DNA from: Bdellovibrio sp.
GTDB lineage: Bacteria > Bdellovibrionota > Bdellovibrionia > Bdellovibrionales > Bdellovibrionaceae
Direction of reading: 5' to 3'
NCBI GenBank assembly: GCA_036676395.1
Contig: JAKFCY010000002.1
Coordinates: 1,408,001-1,472,000 of the forward strand
Length of the DNA: 64,000 nucleotides
The notes under the pieces are model-generated. The model was given only the letters and a program-made list of their open reading frames with translations, made no database searches and was not told the DNA's origin. A program made the translations under genes and the position numbers. This document shows, one piece after another, positions 8,392 to 26,227 of the stretch (positions are counted from its first letter, which is position 1; every line of letters starts with the position of its first letter).

Positions 8392-9405
8392 ATGGCTATT
8401 TCATACAAAGACAGTGGTGTAGATATTGATAAAGCTGACGTATTTGTGAATAAGATTTCACAAATGGTAAAGTCGACTTACAATCAGAATGTGGCGAGTG
8501 GGGTAGGGGGCTTTTGCGCTCTTTATAAAATGGATCAAGAAAGATTCTTAGCTTCAAGCACGGATGGGGTGGGGACTAAGCTTAAGCTTGCGATCGAGTT
8601 AAATAAACACGACACCATCGGCATAGATCTGGTAGCGATGTGCGTGAACGATTTAATTTGTTCAGGCGCAAAACCGTTATTTTTCTTAGACTATTTCGCA
8701 AGCTCGAAACTAAATCTAACTACATCTGAAAAAATCATCGAAGGTATTGTTGAAGGCTGTTTACAATCAAAAATGGTCTTAATCGGTGGTGAAACTGCCG
8801 AAATGCCAGGAATGTATCAAGATGGAGATTACGATCTAGCGGGGTTTTCGGTCGGCGAAGTGTACACGCATAATTTAGTCGACGGCACAAAATTAAAAGA
8901 TGGCGACTCCTTAGTTGCTATTCAAAGCTCAGGATTTCATTCGAATGGTTATTCATTAGTTAGAAAAATCATTACTGATGTGGCTACGAAGCAATTATTG
9001 GCAAGTGAATTAGAAACGCTAAAAAAAGACTGCCTAACTCCGACAAGAATTTACGTAAATAGTGTTTTGAATTTATTAACGAAATATAAAGATAACATCA
9101 AAGGTCTTGCGAACATTACAGGGTCTGGTTTTTTAAATATCCCGCGAATGAACGAAAAATTTGATTACCATTGCACGCAAACGGCAGCCTTGCCTGCATT
9201 TATGCAAACAGTCTGTCAGATGAGTGGTTTATCAGAACTAGAGCTGCATAAGACATTTAACATGGGTGTGGGCTTTGTGATCGCGACCGATAAGCCAGAA
9301 CAAGTTATACAGATGCTTCACGAACACGGCGAAAAGTCATTCGTATTAGGATCGGTAAAAGCAGGCATGGGACAGGTATTTTTAAAAGGCGAAGAAATTA
9401 TTTAA
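8392..9405 (+). CDS. purM: AIR synthetase
   Basis: SYKDSGVD, TDGVGTK, GIDLVAMCVND, GGETAEMPG, HSNGYSL, TFNMGVG. Confidence 0.98.
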   Translation: MAISYKDSGVDIDKADVFVNKISQMVKSTYNQNVASGVGGFCALYKMDQERFLASSTDGVGTKLKLAIELNKHDTIGIDLVAMCVNDLICSGAKPLFFLDYFASSKLNLTTSEKIIEGIVEGCLQSKMVLIGGETAEMPGMYQDGDYDLAGFSVGEVYTHNLVDGTKLKDGDSLVAIQSSGFHSNGYSLVRKIITDVATKQLLASELETLKKDCLTPTRIYVNSVLNLLTKYKDNIKGLANITGSGFLNIPRMNEKFDYHCTQTAALPAFMQTVCQMSGLSELELHKTFNMGVGFVIATDKPEQVIQMLHEHGEKSFVLGSVKAGMGQVFLKGEEII

Positions 9406-10178
9406 AGATAAAGGCGGGTAACTCGTTCAAGCGAGTTACAGTATTTTGAAAATGAGCCACGCTCTAATTCAAAAACACGGATTAAATCTAAATACCAAAG
9501 CGGAACACGGCTTTCGCATTTTAGTTCTAATATAGCTAAGCTTTCGGTGCTGTTGCCGTCATCAAAAATTGCAGACGAATCGTAGTTAATCATTTCACGG
9601 TCTTTTGGCCAAAGATTAAACGTATTTTCTTCTTTGCATCTTAGATCGACATCAAAAGTAATACGTACGTAGTCTTCACAGTTTGATAAAAAAGCACGGC
9701 GACGGTATTGAGTTAAGACCTGAGGCTGAACATTATAAAGCTGAGCATAACTTAAAAATTTTTCTAGGTTTTTCATCGACGATTTATCAACATCTTCTGG
9801 CCTATATGTTCCATGAAAAACTGATTCAATATCCGCCGTTTTAACCTTAGCGCGACTTTTCTTTACGAAATCAGCCGTCTTTTCTTTAACTTCGAAAAAA
9901 TAAGGTGGTTTTGGATCATCGCCGTAAGAACGAATGCGCATATTAAAGCGCTTGGGGTTAACACCATCACTGTTATGATAAAAAGACTGAACCGGAGAAT
10001 CGAAATAAAGCGAATTAATGGTATAAAAACTATCGGGTGATATTTGCGAATAATAATCCATGTCGCAATAGGCTTTTACATATTCTGAAATAGGGTCGAC
10101 AAGGCGGTACGGAATCAAGTACTTAATTTCGTACCGTTCAAACATGAGTGGCGAAACGCCGCCTTCGTTATTTGACAT
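9402..10178 (-). CDS. VTC-domain (CYTH-fold) polyphosphate polymerase-like protein
   Basis: RYEIKY, SLYFD, RIRSY, FFEVK, YRRRAF, VRITFD, ILELK, FSKY: the ordered motif set of bacterial VTC-domain proteins. Confidence 0.9.
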   Translation of the reverse strand: MSNNEGGVSPLMFERYEIKYLIPYRLVDPISEYVKAYCDMDYYSQISPDSFYTINSLYFDSPVQSFYHNSDGVNPKRFNMRIRSYGDDPKPPYFFEVKEKTADFVKKSRAKVKTADIESVFHGTYRPEDVDKSSMKNLEKFLSYAQLYNVQPQVLTQYRRRAFLSNCEDYVRITFDVDLRCKEENTFNLWPKDREMINYDSSAIFDDGNSTESLAILELKCESRVPLWYLDLIRVFELERGSFSKYCNSLERVTRLYL

Positions 10179-11289
10179 ACTTGCGTAATTCCATGAGCGT
10201 CAGCGGGCGTTCAGTTTCATACATCAGTGTTAAGATCTTATCTAAGATAGTTGTTTTTAAAGAAATAAGTTTCGCGTTCTTTTCGAATTTATTTTTTTGC
10301 ATTCCTTGAATCGTTTGCAGATCGATCACGCTATAGATGTTTTTCTTATTAGAAAGAAATTTATCTTCTTTAAAGCTGGATTTTTGCAAAGACTGCATAA
10401 GTTCGATATCGTCTTTAAGAGTTGCTTTGATATTTTTTAATTCATTTGTGCGGGTTTGTGTGTTTGTGCGCTCGGTTAAAAGCTTACGTTGCAAGTTGTA
10501 GCGATCAGAATAATACAGAGTTTTTTCTTCGCGTAAGAAGTTAATATTAAAAACAGCCTTCAATCCAAAAGCGCCTTCGCTATTTTCTTTTTCATAGTCT
10601 TTTTCATAAGTGACTTCAAAACCGTCAAAAACCGCAAAATCTTCGGCGCGTTTGTATTCATACTCGGCCATAGCAAGTCTTGCGTATAGATCATAAGCTT
10701 TGCCAGACTGTGATGATAAAGAGTCTGTATTTAAATTATCAATAAGGTTATGAATATTTTTAATATTCAATACAGCTTCTTCAGGAACTTGATCCCAGGT
10801 GATGCGCATTTGCCCTAAGAGCGGCATGAGCTCATTTTTTTGTTCATTAAGTTCTAGGCCTAACAGTTGTTTGTCTTCATCAGCAGCGATGATTTTAAAA
10901 ACCGTGCTGACGTCTGTATTTGAATTTTCGTATGTAGCTGTCAAAGAATCACGAAAGCGACTCATCCACTTGTTGTATTCAGTGTATTGCTTTTGTTTTT
11001 GTTTGATATCCAAAGCTTGAATAAAATTGCGGATATTATTCAAATCCACTTCTGAATTGATGAACTGGCTGTTGATCGATTTAAACTTACGGTCAATATC
11101 TTTTACTTTGCGCCATTTTTTAAACTCTTCGATACCGTAAAGTTTAAACTTTAATGAATATTCATACTTTTGACCTTCAAGATCGCTATTGCCAATACTG
11201 AGTTGCGCATCTTTAAAAGGAGACTGAAAGCCAAGGGCTTTTAATCCAACCAGGCATAAAATAGTTAAAAGTAAATTACTGTGCTTCAT
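10168..11289 (-). CDS. secreted helical protein, putative TolC/outer-membrane efflux family
   Basis: Signal-peptide-like start (MKHSNLLLTILCLVGLKALG, ATG 11289); long amphipathic helices flanking a beta-hairpin-like segment (GFEVTYEKDY...AFGLKAVFNINF); downstream of an HlyD-type gene. Confidence 0.55.
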   Translation of the reverse strand: MKHSNLLLTILCLVGLKALGFQSPFKDAQLSIGNSDLEGQKYEYSLKFKLYGIEEFKKWRKVKDIDRKFKSINSQFINSEVDLNNIRNFIQALDIKQKQKQYTEYNKWMSRFRDSLTATYENSNTDVSTVFKIIAADEDKQLLGLELNEQKNELMPLLGQMRITWDQVPEEAVLNIKNIHNLIDNLNTDSLSSQSGKAYDLYARLAMAEYEYKRAEDFAVFDGFEVTYEKDYEKENSEGAFGLKAVFNINFLREEKTLYYSDRYNLQRKLLTERTNTQTRTNELKNIKATLKDDIELMQSLQKSSFKEDKFLSNKKNIYSVIDLQTIQGMQKNKFEKNAKLISLKTTILDKILTLMYETERPLTLMELRKYVK

Positions 11290-13060
11290 TGATAAAGTAA
11301 TAAGGTTCGTTTTTACCTTCGTCAAAAACACCAAGGATTTCATTTTTCATACCTAAGGCAATACCCTCTAGTTGGTTTACCGGAAATGTTTTAAGCAGTT
11401 TTAAGTTGTCGCTGGTTAGTTTGTTAGTTTTCCATAAAGCACTGCAGTTCGCTTTTTTGCAAGTTGTAGAAATATAGTACGTGCCGTTTGAAAATACCAA
11501 ATCACTTAAACCCATTTTGTTATCATCTGCAGTTTCAGTTTTGCCTTCAAAACTAAGTTTTGCTTCAAGACTAACTTGTTGTGGGTGAAAGTACTTATTA
11601 GTGAAAATATATTCTTTGTTAATTAAACGCAAAATATAGCTTTCATTACTTTCAGCATGTGGAGCTTTTAAAGCTAACAAAATATCGTTTCCAACCAAAG
11701 TCATACCTTCGATGTCCAGGTCACCTTTTTTAACAGTGCTTGCCTGAATAGTTGTAGCCAATTTTTGCAGTTCCTTTTGTTCAGATTTTGCCATTGCAGC
11801 TAATAATAACGGGCGTAATTCAAAGCTAGAAATAGCAGTTAACTCTAAGCCAACGCGTTTTACTTTAACGATCAAGCTTCGGTTCTTTTTGATGTCACCG
11901 CTCGAATTACGAGATTGTGACGATAACAGATAAATAAAGTTATCATCTTGGGCAATCGATTCGATATCCATGATCTCGGTCAGGTTTTTAATTTTTAAAG
12001 TCTCATTATCCAGACTGCCATCACGATTCATTAGAAATAATAACGGCGAATGTGCTTCGTCAGTGTCATCGCTGATCACTAAGTACTTATTTAAATCGCT
12101 AAGCCAGATAGCTCCAGAGGGTTCAAATTTAGATTGCTCATAAGTAGCTGATGGGATCATCATTTTCTTTAAAGAAAATTGACTAGATGTTTCGAAAAGC
12201 CCAAGGTCGCTTTTCGACGCGTTCGCTAAGGCCATAAAACTTAAAAATGGTTTTGACGGGTCTACAGCAACTTTTTCACCAATTAACAATTGTGTGTGTT
12301 CGCTTAATTCTAAAGTTACTTCGCGGCCGTAGGCGATCATATTTTGAAATTTCAATAAACGAAGAGGCATTTCAACAGTTCTGCGGCCGACATTTTTAAC
12401 TACTGCCGTAGAGACGACATTCGCGCGAGTTGCCGAGCGTACCTTGACCACTTGGCCTTCAACTAAATTCACATCAAGGCTTTCGTTGATAAAACCAGTC
12501 ACGAAAGTAGGTGAGTTGTTTGATAATGTTAAAAGTGTTGCAAAACCATCAGCTTTTTCGCCGGTTTTAAAATTGATCGTTCCAACAACACCATCAGCCG
12601 GTGAAAAGACATAAAGGTCTCTTTTCTTTTTTTCTAAATAATCTTTTTCTTTAATAAGATCATTGAGCTCTGATTGCATCGGATCCATAAACTGGCCTGC
12701 GTTTTTAGCCATGTTTTTAGATTTAGGAATAATGCGGCCAATTTCTTTGCGTAAGGTAATTTCTGATTGAAGACGATTCATCCTAAAATCAACATCACGA
12801 ATTTTTGTATTTAGATCTGATTGTTCAAGTTCTAACAGCAGATCCCCTTTGCGAACATTTTGCCCCTGGATGACATGAATTCGTTTTACTTCGACAGGGT
12901 ATTCAAAATTAATCTGCAATTCTTTAGAATCAGCGATTCCTAAAAAACCGATGCGCTCAACGCGAATCGAATTATACAGGACACCACAGATAAAGATGGC
13001 TGCGATAAGTGAGACGTAGATGAGGCTGTGCGTTTTTGTCGATATTTTTGATTTTTTCAT
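11276..13060 (-). CDS. HlyD-family periplasmic adaptor fused to a C-terminal beta-propeller (DUF3616/phytase-like/SdiA-regulated type)
   Basis: N-terminal TM; lipoyl half-motifs VKRIHVIQGQNVRKGDLL and SPADGVV..TGE flanking a coiled coil; C-half blade repeats FEPSG, ISDD, DIESIA, DIEGMT, LEGIA. Confidence 0.8.
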   Translation of the reverse strand: MKKSKISTKTHSLIYVSLIAAIFICGVLYNSIRVERIGFLGIADSKELQINFEYPVEVKRIHVIQGQNVRKGDLLLELEQSDLNTKIRDVDFRMNRLQSEITLRKEIGRIIPKSKNMAKNAGQFMDPMQSELNDLIKEKDYLEKKKRDLYVFSPADGVVGTINFKTGEKADGFATLLTLSNNSPTFVTGFINESLDVNLVEGQVVKVRSATRANVVSTAVVKNVGRRTVEMPLRLLKFQNMIAYGREVTLELSEHTQLLIGEKVAVDPSKPFLSFMALANASKSDLGLFETSSQFSLKKMMIPSATYEQSKFEPSGAIWLSDLNKYLVISDDTDEAHSPLLFLMNRDGSLDNETLKIKNLTEIMDIESIAQDDNFIYLLSSQSRNSSGDIKKNRSLIVKVKRVGLELTAISSFELRPLLLAAMAKSEQKELQKLATTIQASTVKKGDLDIEGMTLVGNDILLALKAPHAESNESYILRLINKEYIFTNKYFHPQQVSLEAKLSFEGKTETADDNKMGLSDLVFSNGTYYISTTCKKANCSALWKTNKLTSDNLKLLKTFPVNQLEGIALGMKNEILGVFDEGKNEPYYFINEAQ

Positions 13061-13069
13061 ATTTCAACC

Positions 13070-13753
13070 TTATAAGTCCACGACAGTTTCTTGCATCATG
13101 ACGTTAACCGCTTTTGCTGTCGGAAGTTTTTGGGCTTCCAGAACCAGGTCATGTGAAGTTTTGCCTTTTTTAAATTTAATCTGGTAAGTGTAATCAACAC
13201 GATCGCCCTGCGCGACTTCGCGCACGTTTAATAAATAGAAATGCTGGCAATAGTTCGTTAAAATGCTTTCTAAACTACGGACATCTTGCCCCGATTTATC
13301 TAAATTCAGGCGAAATAAGCCATCAAAATAGGTCTCGTTGGCGAAGGGTGTTTTATGAAGAATTACAGCTACGGCGCCAAAAGCCATTGTTCCAAAAACC
13401 GCGATAACATAAGAATGTGCTCCAGCAGCTAAGCCAAGAGCCAGAGAGGCAAAGATAAAAAACATATCGCGTGGGTCTTTAATATTCGTTCGAAAGCGTA
13501 ATAATGAAACGGCGCCCATCATCCCGATACCACGGGCAACGTTATCGCCAATGGCTTGCATGGCAATGGCTGTAACAATCGGGCTTAAGATTAACGAGTG
13601 GATAAAGTTACGTGAATACGAAAGACCGCGAAAAGTTTTAATGTAGGTAAATGCGATCGTGCATCCCATGACAAACGATAAACAAAACGCAAAAAGAATC
13701 GAAAATTCGCTTAAGTGAGTTGTTGTCGAATTAAGTACGCTAAGATCGAACAT
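13070..13753 (-). CDS. DUF4956 family membrane protein
   Basis: About 5 hydrophobic segments; signature GMMGAVSLLRFRTNIKDPRDMFFIFASLALGLAAG; small soluble C-terminal domain. Confidence 0.9.
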   Translation of the reverse strand: MFDLSVLNSTTTHLSEFSILFAFCLSFVMGCTIAFTYIKTFRGLSYSRNFIHSLILSPIVTAIAMQAIGDNVARGIGMMGAVSLLRFRTNIKDPRDMFFIFASLALGLAAGAHSYVIAVFGTMAFGAVAVILHKTPFANETYFDGLFRLNLDKSGQDVRSLESILTNYCQHFYLLNVREVAQGDRVDYTYQIKFKKGKTSHDLVLEAQKLPTAKAVNVMMQETVVDL

Positions 13754-13785: not shown

Positions 13786-13899
13786 TTATTTTGACCTGGT
13801 ATGTTTTCTCAAATTTAGGGCGTTCTATAAATGGAAATATGCTTACAGAGCATATATTTCACATGGAGGCGTAAAATTGTTAGTCACTTTTTTCTTGAG

Positions 13900-14310
13900 C
13901 TAGAGCTCTAAACAAAGATTTTTAACAGCTTCTTTAGAGCACTCCCACTCTTGTGAATGGACTGGAAGGCCGCCTTGATCCAAATAGGTCACAGTGCCAG
14001 ACTGGGTAGGCGTTTCGCCTGATGATTGAAAGCTAAATATGAACTCTTCGCCAAAATCTGTTTTTGACGAAATCGCCAAATTGTTTTTGTCCTTACTGCA
14101 ATTAATTTTTGAAATCGTATATCCAAACGGACGTATACCGTAGGGAATATGGCGATCCATAATGATTAGAGATTCTTTAGTGTCGACATAAAGGTGAAGA
14201 TAAGTCTGAAAAACATCATAGGAATACCAGCGCCGACAAAGATCGTATTTTTCAGCATGAGCAATTGAGTTTAGGTAAGTGAAAGTTAAAAATAGAATAA
14301 TATTTTTCAA
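13900..14310 (-). CDS. hypothetical secreted protein
   Basis: TTG start, signal peptide ending AHA, 4 Cys; no family recognised. Confidence 0.7.
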   Translation of the reverse strand: MKNIILFLTFTYLNSIAHAEKYDLCRRWYSYDVFQTYLHLYVDTKESLIIMDRHIPYGIRPFGYTISKINCSKDKNNLAISSKTDFGEEFIFSFQSSGETPTQSGTVTYLDQGGLPVHSQEWECSKEAVKNLCLEL

Positions 14311-16064: not shown

Positions 16065-17336
16065 TTAAATTTGACCCTGAACTTCGGCTTCAACCATCGC
16101 TTCTTGATCGGTGGCCGTCGGGTGGTCTAAATATTTCAATTTTTGTAAAATCACTAAAGTAAATAAACCCACACCGATCGCCATGTAACCAACGGCGGGG
16201 TAATTTAATAAACGTCCATCTTTAGGGTCAATCATAACAATCATTCCCGCAATGTAAGAGCCTGCAGCCATAGCGAGTGACTGTAAACAACTTAAAAGGC
16301 TCATGAAGGCTCCGCGCTGTTGTGCTGAGACTGCGCCAGACACAAGCGCCTGTGCAGGAATCATTCGTGATCCTGCCGATATAAAAAATAAACTGGCCAC
16401 AATTAGCACAATCCAGAGACTGTCTTTTCCTTGATGGGTCACCAAAAATATCGGAATGATCGAAAATAAAATCGAGTACATATAGATCTTAGCTTTGCCG
16501 TAGCGATCCGAAAGTCTTCCGACCAGAGGGGCACTAAAAAAGGAACAAATTCCACCTATTAAGTAAATCAAGGTCAGTTCTCTTTCGCTAAGGCCGGCAT
16601 TCACAACCTGAGAAGTGGCAATAAACGGAATAATGCTAAAATGCGAGAACATCACAAAAAACATAAAAATTAAAGACATGCGCTGAACCGGTGATTGCAG
16701 AACTGAAACGACGGGTTGCCAGAATGTGATTTTAGGCACTTTGTGCATTTCGGGAATGTCAGGCTGAAGATGTTTATTAATTTTCGGAACGTAGCGATAA
16801 ATTCCAACTAAGATAATTAAACATAAGGCAGCTAAGAAAATAAAAGGCGAATACCAAGTTAATGATTGTGAAAGAAAAATAGAAAATGGCACGCCAAAAA
16901 TTGAGGCTGCTGAAAATGCCGTAGCCAAAAAGCCCATGGCCATGCCGCGACGTTTGTAATCAATCAGATCGCTTGCGATTGAAAGAATTATCGAATTCAT
17001 CACGCCGCCAAAAAAACCGGTCATCGAGCGAGCGATAAGTAAGGTGTGGTAGTCGCGAGCTATGCCGCAAAATATCGTGGCTAAAGTAAACCCGGCAAAT
17101 AAAATAATCAGACTTTTTTTGCGATCAAAACGATCCATGTAAAACGAAGCTAAAAATCCTGAAATACCCGCAAAAAAAGTGTAACTTGAAACTAATAAAC
17201 TAAATTGCTGGGCTTCGATCGAAAAAAGACGCATCAATTGGGTTCCCATCGGCATGATAATCATGAAATCCACGATGTGATTAAATTGAACGAAAGCTAA
17301 GATGGTTAATATTTTTTTCTCTAAAGATGTAAACAC
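16065..17336 (-). CDS. MFS transporter
   Basis: About 12 TM segments; motif A copies DRFDRKK and GRLSDRYGK. Confidence 0.93.
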   Translation of the reverse strand: MFTSLEKKILTILAFVQFNHIVDFMIIMPMGTQLMRLFSIEAQQFSLLVSSYTFFAGISGFLASFYMDRFDRKKSLIILFAGFTLATIFCGIARDYHTLLIARSMTGFFGGVMNSIILSIASDLIDYKRRGMAMGFLATAFSAASIFGVPFSIFLSQSLTWYSPFIFLAALCLIILVGIYRYVPKINKHLQPDIPEMHKVPKITFWQPVVSVLQSPVQRMSLIFMFFVMFSHFSIIPFIATSQVVNAGLSERELTLIYLIGGICSFFSAPLVGRLSDRYGKAKIYMYSILFSIIPIFLVTHQGKDSLWIVLIVASLFFISAGSRMIPAQALVSGAVSAQQRGAFMSLLSCLQSLAMAAGSYIAGMIVMIDPKDGRLLNYPAVGYMAIGVGLFTLVILQKLKYLDHPTATDQEAMVEAEVQGQI

Positions 17337-25408: not shown

Positions 25409-26227
25409 TTGATGAATTACTTTCAAACATTCTGGGAAAACTTAATCTTTATCAGTTCACACCTGAGAGCGCAGGATGTCTTTGACATCTTGCTGGTGTG
25501 GTTAGTTATTTATCGCGTTCTGATGATTATTCGTCGTACTGGCACGGTGCAAATCCTGTCAGGCTTAGGGATTTTAGCGATCACTTATATCATGACGATA
25601 TGGTTTGAGTTTTTCACGATGAATTGGCTTTTAGAGAAATTCTTTTCAAATTTGTTTGTTATTATCGTCGTGCTTTTCCAAGCCGAGATTCGCAGAGCTT
25701 TAGCACAAATCGGAAGTCATCCGCTATTTTCAGATGTGTCTGCCGTGATGGAAACTCACATGGTCGAAGAGATCGCAAAAGGTGTAATTACCGCAGCAGA
25801 AAAAGGCTACGGCGCACTTTTAGTGATTGAAAAAGACATTATGGTTGATTACCACATCGAAATCGGAACCGAAATGGATTCGCGCGTTTCAGTAGAATTA
25901 ATTCAGTCAATTTTTCACCCGCAAGCACCTATGCATGACGGAGCAGTTCTAATTCGTTCAGGTAAAATTGCTTATGCCGGTTGTTTTTTGCCGTTAAGTA
26001 AAAATCCGGCTTTAGATAAGAATTTAGGAACCCGCCATAGAGCCGCGATTGGTTTAACTGAAGAAACTGATGCCGTAGTGTTGGTGGTTTCAGAAGAAAC
26101 TAAATCGATCAGTATCGTGACCGGCGGGCATATGCGCCCGAATGTAGAATTGATTGATGTACGTATGGCTCTATACGAGGCTTTTGGTTTAAAATATAAA
26201 GTTCATCATCACGAAGGTGTTTCATAA
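25409..26227 (+). CDS. cdaA: membrane diadenylate cyclase CdaA/DacA
   Basis: Three TMs, FQAEIRRAL, catalytic HDGA and GTRHRAA motifs. Confidence 0.95.
   Translation: MMNYFQTFWENLIFISSHLRAQDVFDILLVWLVIYRVLMIIRRTGTVQILSGLGILAITYIMTIWFEFFTMNWLLEKFFSNLFVIIVVLFQAEIRRALAQIGSHPLFSDVSAVMETHMVEEIAKGVITAAEKGYGALLVIEKDIMVDYHIEIGTEMDSRVSVELIQSIFHPQAPMHDGAVLIRSGKIAYAGCFLPLSKNPALDKNLGTRHRAAIGLTEETDAVVLVVSEETKSISIVTGGHMRPNVELIDVRMALYEAFGLKYKVHHHEGVS

Follow-up and report, generated by a model that had tools for sequence, protein, structure and literature searches.

We analysed a 64,000-nucleotide (nt) stretch of a Bdellovibrio sp. genome (assembly GCA_036676395.1, contig JAKFCY010000002.1, positions 1,408,001 to 1,472,000), referred to here as the window, and focused on four minus-strand genes that encode, in order, a DUF4956 protein of 227 amino acids (aa), a 594-aa adaptor, a 373-aa TolC-like protein and a 258-aa VTC-domain protein. 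Their coordinates, with those of the other features described below, are collected in the table. The first two genes are separated by a 9-nt gap, followed by overlaps of 14 and 11 nt. The initial annotation had read these as probably one operon lying between purM and a region holding an orphan gene and rny, and both the positions of the open reading frames (ORFs) and the flanks agree with it: purM is convergent with the VTC end of the operon, overlapping it by 4 nt, and on the upstream side come the 136-aa orphan, rny and an MFS gene. The four-gene operon is real. Its GC content is similar to that of the flanks, and the closest named loci, in Pseudobdellovibrio and an unclassified Bdellovibrionota genome, share 77-90% identity and have neighbours identical in kind. 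An alternative, longer start of the TolC-like ORF at 11343 would give a protein of 391 aa.

The 258-aa protein was assigned to the VTC domain (PF09359, E = 8.3e-47, residues 14-251) and is soluble, with no hydrophobic peak or membrane segment. A profile of 34 VTC homologues matched yeast Vtc4 (3g3q, E = 3e-12). According to the accessible text of 10.1101/2023.01.27.525886, the Vtc4 residues K200, R264, R266, K281, Y359, R361, E426, S457 and K458 serve polyphosphate (polyP) synthesis or metal binding, and K458 is lost in the non-catalytic Vtc2 and Vtc3. Counterparts of all nine are present (K19, R81, R83, K98, Y158, R160, E218, S244 and K245); eight were aligned directly to 3g3q (offset 185 from 8i6v) and K200 was paired with K19 by motif. 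The set was invariant in the 34 aligned sequences and in 42-43 of the 43 adaptor-type rows, one of which is truncated; the Vtc4-specific counterparts of K458, S457 and Y359 were likewise invariant in the adaptor-type VTC sequences. The VTC identity proposed initially was borne out by the domain match, the Vtc4 profile match and the complete active-site set. The adaptor-type VTC proteins also formed a cluster of their own (support 99), made up of 40 sequences and one more whose locus had no detected adaptor. A Pfam scan returned no SPX match in any of the four operon proteins.

Sequence and profile searches alone gave no identity for the 373-aa protein, which had no Pfam or NCBIfam match. An AlphaFold2 model built from a 41-row alignment (predicted local distance difference test score, pLDDT, 84.8; predicted template-modelling score, pTM, 0.74) was matched by Foldseek to TolC (E = 2.4e-11), with TolC, CusC, OprM, VceC and MtrE in the range 2e-11 to 1e-7. 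VIA-align gave Z scores of 17.6-18.7 (CusC: Z 18.7, root-mean-square deviation 3.9, 336 aligned), and its first unrelated row stood at Z 8.7. In the model, a signal-like helix at the N-terminus is accompanied by four beta-strands and two long helical hairpins, and the first N-terminal helices of TolC are absent. As judged from the model, the protein has the TolC fold and is a divergent outer-membrane factor; presence of the outer-membrane efflux fold had been set beforehand as a test of the proposed export function, and the Foldseek and VIA-align matches both point to it.

The 594-aa protein carries an N-terminal membrane anchor and an adaptor part of the HlyD/EmrA/MacA type. It matched the RND_mfp profile TIGR01730 (E = 4e-12, below the curated cut-off, profile positions 25-210 of 322), as well as MacA (4dk0, E = 7e-14) and EmrA (4tko, E = 3e-11), with MexJ in between. 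The C-terminal region is probably a beta-propeller, an assignment drawn from weak Pfam matches in homologues (Phytase-like, 3e-6; DUF6910, 5e-6; also DUF3616). Thus the adaptor half of the earlier HlyD-propeller description held by direct profile matches, and the propeller half only by these weak matches in homologues. Since the propeller region occurs in 33 of 39 adaptor-type loci, it is accessory. The linker preceding it carries a short hydrophobic stretch ending in A-x-A, and the A-x-A was found in this linker in 46/49 propeller-bearing homologues versus 50/487 equal-length propeller windows; the stretch resembles a signal-peptidase I site, and cleavage there may release the propeller.

The 227-aa protein belongs to DUF4956 (PF16316, E = 4.7e-12), as had been annotated. 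Its model (pLDDT 80.7) shows five N-terminal helices and a C-terminal ACT-like domain, with hydropathy peaks at four of the helices. The ACT part matched structures including the C-terminal domain of MgtC (2lqj, Z 8.8), and an MgtC Pfam match fell below the curated cut-off (21.3 versus 31.4 bits, E = 3.5e-4). By this model the architecture is MgtC/SapB-like. No clear fold match was obtained for the membrane domain, the search results being dominated by the ACT domain (residues 139-224). In alignments, G80, R86 and R88 are invariant on a glycine-rich third helix, with R86 and R88 at its end. These two arginines are candidates for basic rings comparable to those of the VTC channel vestibule described in the accessible text of 10.1101/2023.01.27.525886. 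We built DUF4956 trees in quick and FastTree versions, and in both the adaptor-linked proteins formed one side of a branch (36/36; Shimodaira-Hasegawa-like approximate likelihood ratio test support 100 and 99, respectively). With a profile of this subfamily, 46 of the 401 Bdellovibrionota genomes reached a score of 312 bits or higher, all of them carrying the cassette, and the next match stood at 155 bits. When VTC was modelled in complex with a single DUF4956 chain the score was 0.00, a value that speaks neither for nor against association.

VTC genes were found in 77 of the 401 Bdellovibrionota genomes, and 47 of the 77, this genome included, carry the cassette. We sampled about 8 kb on each side of 80 VTC loci, which came from 69 of the other 76 VTC genomes; an adaptor gene was present at 39 loci and absent from 41. 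All four genes were recognised by profile at 34 of the 39 adaptor-type loci, so that the co-occurrence in other genomes on which the initial proposal had been made to depend was observed; two further loci run off the end of a contig, another two show a weak or unmatched ORF in the TolC position and one lacks TolC. Across five families the genes retain the order DUF4956-adaptor-TolC-VTC, with spacing close to zero. For the seven remaining VTC genomes, a TolC-like gene and the end of an adaptor were seen in shorter loci. Among metagenome loci, 27/33 have the adaptor, and the remaining six are either short or break off at the DUF4956 gene.

Genes resembling secreted kinases lie within 8 kb at 22/39 adaptor-type loci: 16 Fam20C-like, five of a large unnamed family and one CotH. 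At VTC loci without an adaptor such neighbours, mostly CotH, occur in 23/41 cases. The contrast with CotH loci drawn in the initial annotation was therefore misleading, kinase-like neighbours being about equally frequent in both groups. They occur in at least six arrangements, including a position immediately upstream of DUF4956 (4 loci) and one within the operon itself (L060). The commonest neighbour, the Fam20C-like family, comprises unannotated, signal-peptide-like, cysteine-rich proteins of 450-550 aa with invariant D-R-x-G-N and D-N-D motifs. In the Atlas it lies near the secretory kinases Fam20C, FJX1 and FAM198 (features 0.91 to a Fam20C cluster; structural TM score 0.52/0.66 to a cluster of which 36% is Fam20C). 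The family had no Pfam or PDB sequence match and no match to the CotH profile; PF06702 matched nowhere, controls included. Fam20C-like genes were detected in 65/401 genomes (39/47 with the cassette versus 26/354 others) and were enriched in each of the five families. One genus was fully concordant, with 21 genomes having both and five having neither. Of the eight cassette genomes without a Fam20C-like gene, six have the large family, although two of these six contributed to its profile. No kinase-like gene adjoins the operon in its own genome, which has Fam20C-like genes (three), CotH genes (two) and large-family genes (one to three) elsewhere; with eight genes spread over 3.4 Mb, one would be expected by chance in a given 16.7-kb window in about 4% of cases.

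Several observations accompany these neighbours. Members of the large family are secreted proteins of 500 aa or 1100-1230 aa whose kinase-like motifs, read by eye, are unconfirmed; they had no match in Pfam, PDB or the Fam20C-like and CotH profiles, and two head-to-head copies lie just upstream of the cassette in L052, L054, L126 and L129. A secreted 220-270-aa protein without a Pfam match is encoded beside the Fam20C-like gene at nine loci, and also in the own genome; its H-C-x-x-G-x-H-A-S motif, compared by eye, may correspond to a tyrosine/dual-specificity phosphatase loop. The three Fam20C-like paralogues of the own genome lie outside the window, and clusters structurally resembling the family occur in Pseudomonadota and Verrucomicrobiota (Atlas). 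Secreted metallophosphoesterases flank 7/39 adaptor-type loci. PPDK_N proteins, also secreted, are found near 5/39, as part of a signal-peptide-bearing trio (a PPDK_N ATP-grasp protein and unknowns of 457 and 593 aa) that is absent from the own genome.

No RND, ABC or MFS transporter is encoded within the operon, and the window contains no CotH gene. The earlier statement that the operon has neither pump nor CotH held for the operon itself; two CotH genes lie elsewhere in the genome. No pump family was conserved near the cassette in a scan of 161 of the 247 representatives of neighbour clusters; RND, MFS, MATE and ABC genes were sporadic, including an ABC ATPase gene directly after VTC in L049. 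The own genome has no convincing RND_mfp match besides the adaptor, while four full-length RND genes (C2, near 8.8 kb and 1.684, 2.009 and 2.371 Mb) each lie beside an outer-membrane factor with no adjacent adaptor gene, which leaves some room for use of the adaptor in trans. With respect to polyP enzymes, the genome has ppk1, which makes VTC dispensable for ordinary polyP in the cytoplasm; no PPK2 was found there.

We infer from these data a polymerisation-driven polyP exporter, a reading that in our judgement stands evenly between acceptance and rejection. The cytoplasmic VTC protein would make polyP or short oligophosphates from ATP at the entrance to an oligomer of DUF4956, in which the third helix, lined with arginines, would form the inner-membrane pore. 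The membrane-anchored adaptor would link this pore to the TolC-like channel, allowing the polymer to bypass the periplasm and leave the cell, with polymerisation taking the place of a pump driven by protons or ATP. A likely use of the exported polyP would be as phosphoryl donor for the secreted kinases flanking the loci. The fuller version, in which the pump is replaced by a Vtc4-type enzyme plus an MgtC-like pore, and polyP secreted across both membranes is the donor that lets secreted kinases (Fam20C-like, CotH and further atypical ones) phosphorylate in the ATP-free space outside the cell, is held tentatively and with distinctly less confidence. The trans-envelope polyP exporter put forward initially thus gained from the co-occurrence, the TolC fold and the active site, and lost the CotH contrast.

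Several observations weigh against polyP export. The R-x-E-x-K motif of bacterial VTC proteins contains an invariant glutamate, E17, where Vtc4 has threonine, and we take this residue to be a metal ligand of hydrolytic tunnel enzymes; because it is kept, polymerase activity is no more than likely. The DUF4956-adaptor-TolC trio also exists without a nearby VTC gene: a plasmid of Chondrinema (Bacteroidota) carries a DUF4956 gene of the same subfamily, an adaptor and a TolC-like gene (E = 2e-52, 3e-64 and 6e-23), and no VTC was found on this 310-kb plasmid, which was searched without the chromosome; metagenome locus L137 likewise has the trio with no adjacent VTC. Conversely, L058, L128 and L138 join the adaptor straight to VTC with no TolC. 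Of ten genomes in the own genus that lack the cassette, eight still have a Fam20C-like gene, and CotH is also present in some genomes devoid of VTC; the kinases are thus not strictly dependent on the cassette. The co-occurrence counts include kin that are not independent. As a family, the TolC-like proteins show no net positive charge (median +0.3 charges per 100 aa), although this measure is uninformative.

The strongest alternative, unlikely in our estimate but a serious competitor, is that DUF4956, adaptor and TolC form a tripartite channel for a small solute such as phosphate, pyrophosphate, triphosphate, a nucleotide or a cation, gated by the ACT domain, with VTC acting as triphosphatase, energiser or regulator. 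The trio without adjacent VTC, the invariant E17 and the MgtC-like architecture of DUF4956 all fit such a channel, and MgtC has been tied to phosphate uptake (PMC6658541, accessible part). Fam20-type kinases use ATP, according to the portion of PMC7948968 available, and ATP export would therefore also explain the kinase neighbours. Against this channel, the DUF4956 subfamily is always accompanied by VTC within the 401 Bdellovibrionota genomes (46/46), the counterparts of K458, S457 and Y359 do not vary, and the adaptor-type VTC proteins form their own cluster.

An inward duct appears improbable. Here, polyP or phosphate from outside or from prey would enter through TolC and DUF4956, the propeller and neighbouring phosphoesterases would prepare the substrate, and VTC, running in reverse or hydrolytically, would recover ATP or phosphate; the flanking metallophosphoesterases, the weak phytase-like propeller matches and the failure to find PPK2 are in its favour. 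However, TolC-type ducts are exit channels, a Pho-box-like repeat was not conserved upstream (1/37 regions within 2 mismatches), and import leaves the kinase neighbours unexplained. Slightly less probable still is a pair of separate modules, DUF4956-VTC acting alone and the adaptor and TolC-like protein serving a pump encoded elsewhere: the RND genes without adjacent adaptors and an MFS gene 2.3 kb upstream on the same strand suit it, but RND genes also lie far from adaptor genes in four cassette-less congeners, the MFS neighbour is confined to Pseudobdellovibrio loci, adaptor presence follows one DUF4956 subfamily exactly, and the adaptor match ends at position 210 of 322, consistent with the lack of the membrane-proximal domain that RND partners use.

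Other features of the locus were also recorded. Promoter and terminator scans of the operon gave results at chance level only, and no conserved motif was found in the upstream regions across loci. An imperfect inverted repeat upstream of DUF4956, partly retained in congeners, is a possible terminator or regulator site. The signal-peptide-like orphan between rny and the operon is present in L002-L004 and absent from L001, with no family match, and the MFS transporter upstream of rny is on the cassette strand. Both genes were considered as parts of the operon and rejected because they are not conserved. Elsewhere in the window, a diadenylate cyclase gene (DAC domain) lies between ftsH and a phosphoglucomutase/phosphomannomutase-family gene. 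In other genomes, the Chondrinema litorale trio is located downstream of a sensor kinase/response regulator pair, and a third type of VTC neighbourhood has an arylsulfotransferase (ASST) gene before VTC, with DUF4956 divergent.

Table. Positions of the operon genes and other features; plain numbers refer to the window, and L numbers denote other loci.
Feature	Position	Strand	Details
DUF4956 gene	13070..13753	-	227 aa
Adaptor-propeller gene	11276..13060	-	594 aa
TolC-like gene	10168..11289	-	373 aa; ATG chosen for N-terminal signal-like helix
VTC gene	9402..10178	-	258 aa
Short hydrophobic stretch ending A-x-A	12218..12250	-	residues 271-281; between adaptor and probable propeller
Imperfect inverted repeat	13827-13860		
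Orphan gene	13900-14310	-	136 aa
MFS transporter gene	16065-17336	-	
Diadenylate cyclase gene	25409-26227	+	
Fam20C-like paralogues, own genome	L115:7671-9107; L116:8033-9463; L117:7937-9415		
H-C-x-x-G-x-H-A-S protein	L116:7297-8010; L060:10365-11024; L113:10313-11113		
Large kinase-like family	L118:7253-10951; L059:8966-12295; L057:721-4320; L110:11687-13207		
PPDK_N trio	L060:2939-7718; L063:13017-16700; also L049, L065, L068		
Chondrinema litorale trio	L152:8001-10941		
ASST-VTC neighbourhood	L089:8654-10360; L090:6339-8009		

If polyP export is correct, the cassette would bring to TolC-dependent export both an inner-membrane component of a new class and a new source of energy, would give a function to two widespread families, bacterial VTC and DUF4956, and would provide a bacterial route for polyP secretion. 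It also bears on the source of phosphoryl donor for secreted bacterial kinases of the CotH-like and Fam20C-like types. Because the unit consists of four small genes and is found in culturable Bdellovibrionaceae, expression, purification and deletion are feasible. No description of a VTC-DUF4956-adaptor-TolC unit appeared among the full-text literature matches listed, a coverage that leaves out most subscription journals, and VTC is discussed as eukaryotic in the accessible part of PMC10657179. The name DUF4956 itself came up in five papers. The cassette is a conserved and apparently undescribed system that falls outside both the VTC complex and the classical tripartite pumps while resembling each.

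Like the eukaryotic VTC complex (yeast Vtc4/Vtc3/Vtc1; 3g3q, 7ytj, 8i6v, 9umg), the cassette has a Vtc4-type tunnel domain with a full catalytic set, and synthesis of polyP is proposed to be coupled to its passage through a membrane. Unlike that complex, its enzyme is free and soluble, with neither SPX nor membrane part, its membrane partner is an MgtC-like DUF4956 protein instead of a recognised Vtc1-type subunit, and an adaptor and outer-membrane channel are added. With EmrAB-TolC, MacAB-TolC, AcrAB-TolC and type I secretion it shares a membrane-anchored periplasmic adaptor and a TolC-fold factor in one operon; it differs in having DUF4956 in the gene position of the RND, ABC or MFS transporter, a probable propeller on the adaptor, and an N-terminally shortened outer-membrane factor too divergent for Pfam OEP. 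MgtC/SapB proteins likewise combine a helical membrane domain with a C-terminal ACT-like domain, but the cassette DUF4956 falls below the MgtC Pfam cut-off, and we know of no MgtC paired with adaptors or VTC.

Closer in gene content are the sets in which cotH, a polyP polymerase gene and DUF4956 lie beside Gram-positive pel loci, with no tested function given in the accessible text (10.1101/768473), and the VTC and CotH genes of the C. perfringens NELoc-2 locus (PMC2879425, available portion). These sets resemble the cassette in the VTC-DUF4956 pair and a nearby extracytoplasmic kinase-like gene, whereas the cassette DUF4956 is a distinct subfamily joined to adaptor and TolC, its neighbours are mostly Fam20C-like or large kinase-like genes instead of CotH, and a polysaccharide synthase is missing. 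Synthase-dependent secretion of exopolysaccharides such as cellulose, alginate and Pel relies on glycosyltransferases, TPR scaffolds and beta-barrel porins. The cassette has none of these three components, but it would share with synthase-dependent secretion the coupling of polymerisation to envelope passage without a separate pump.

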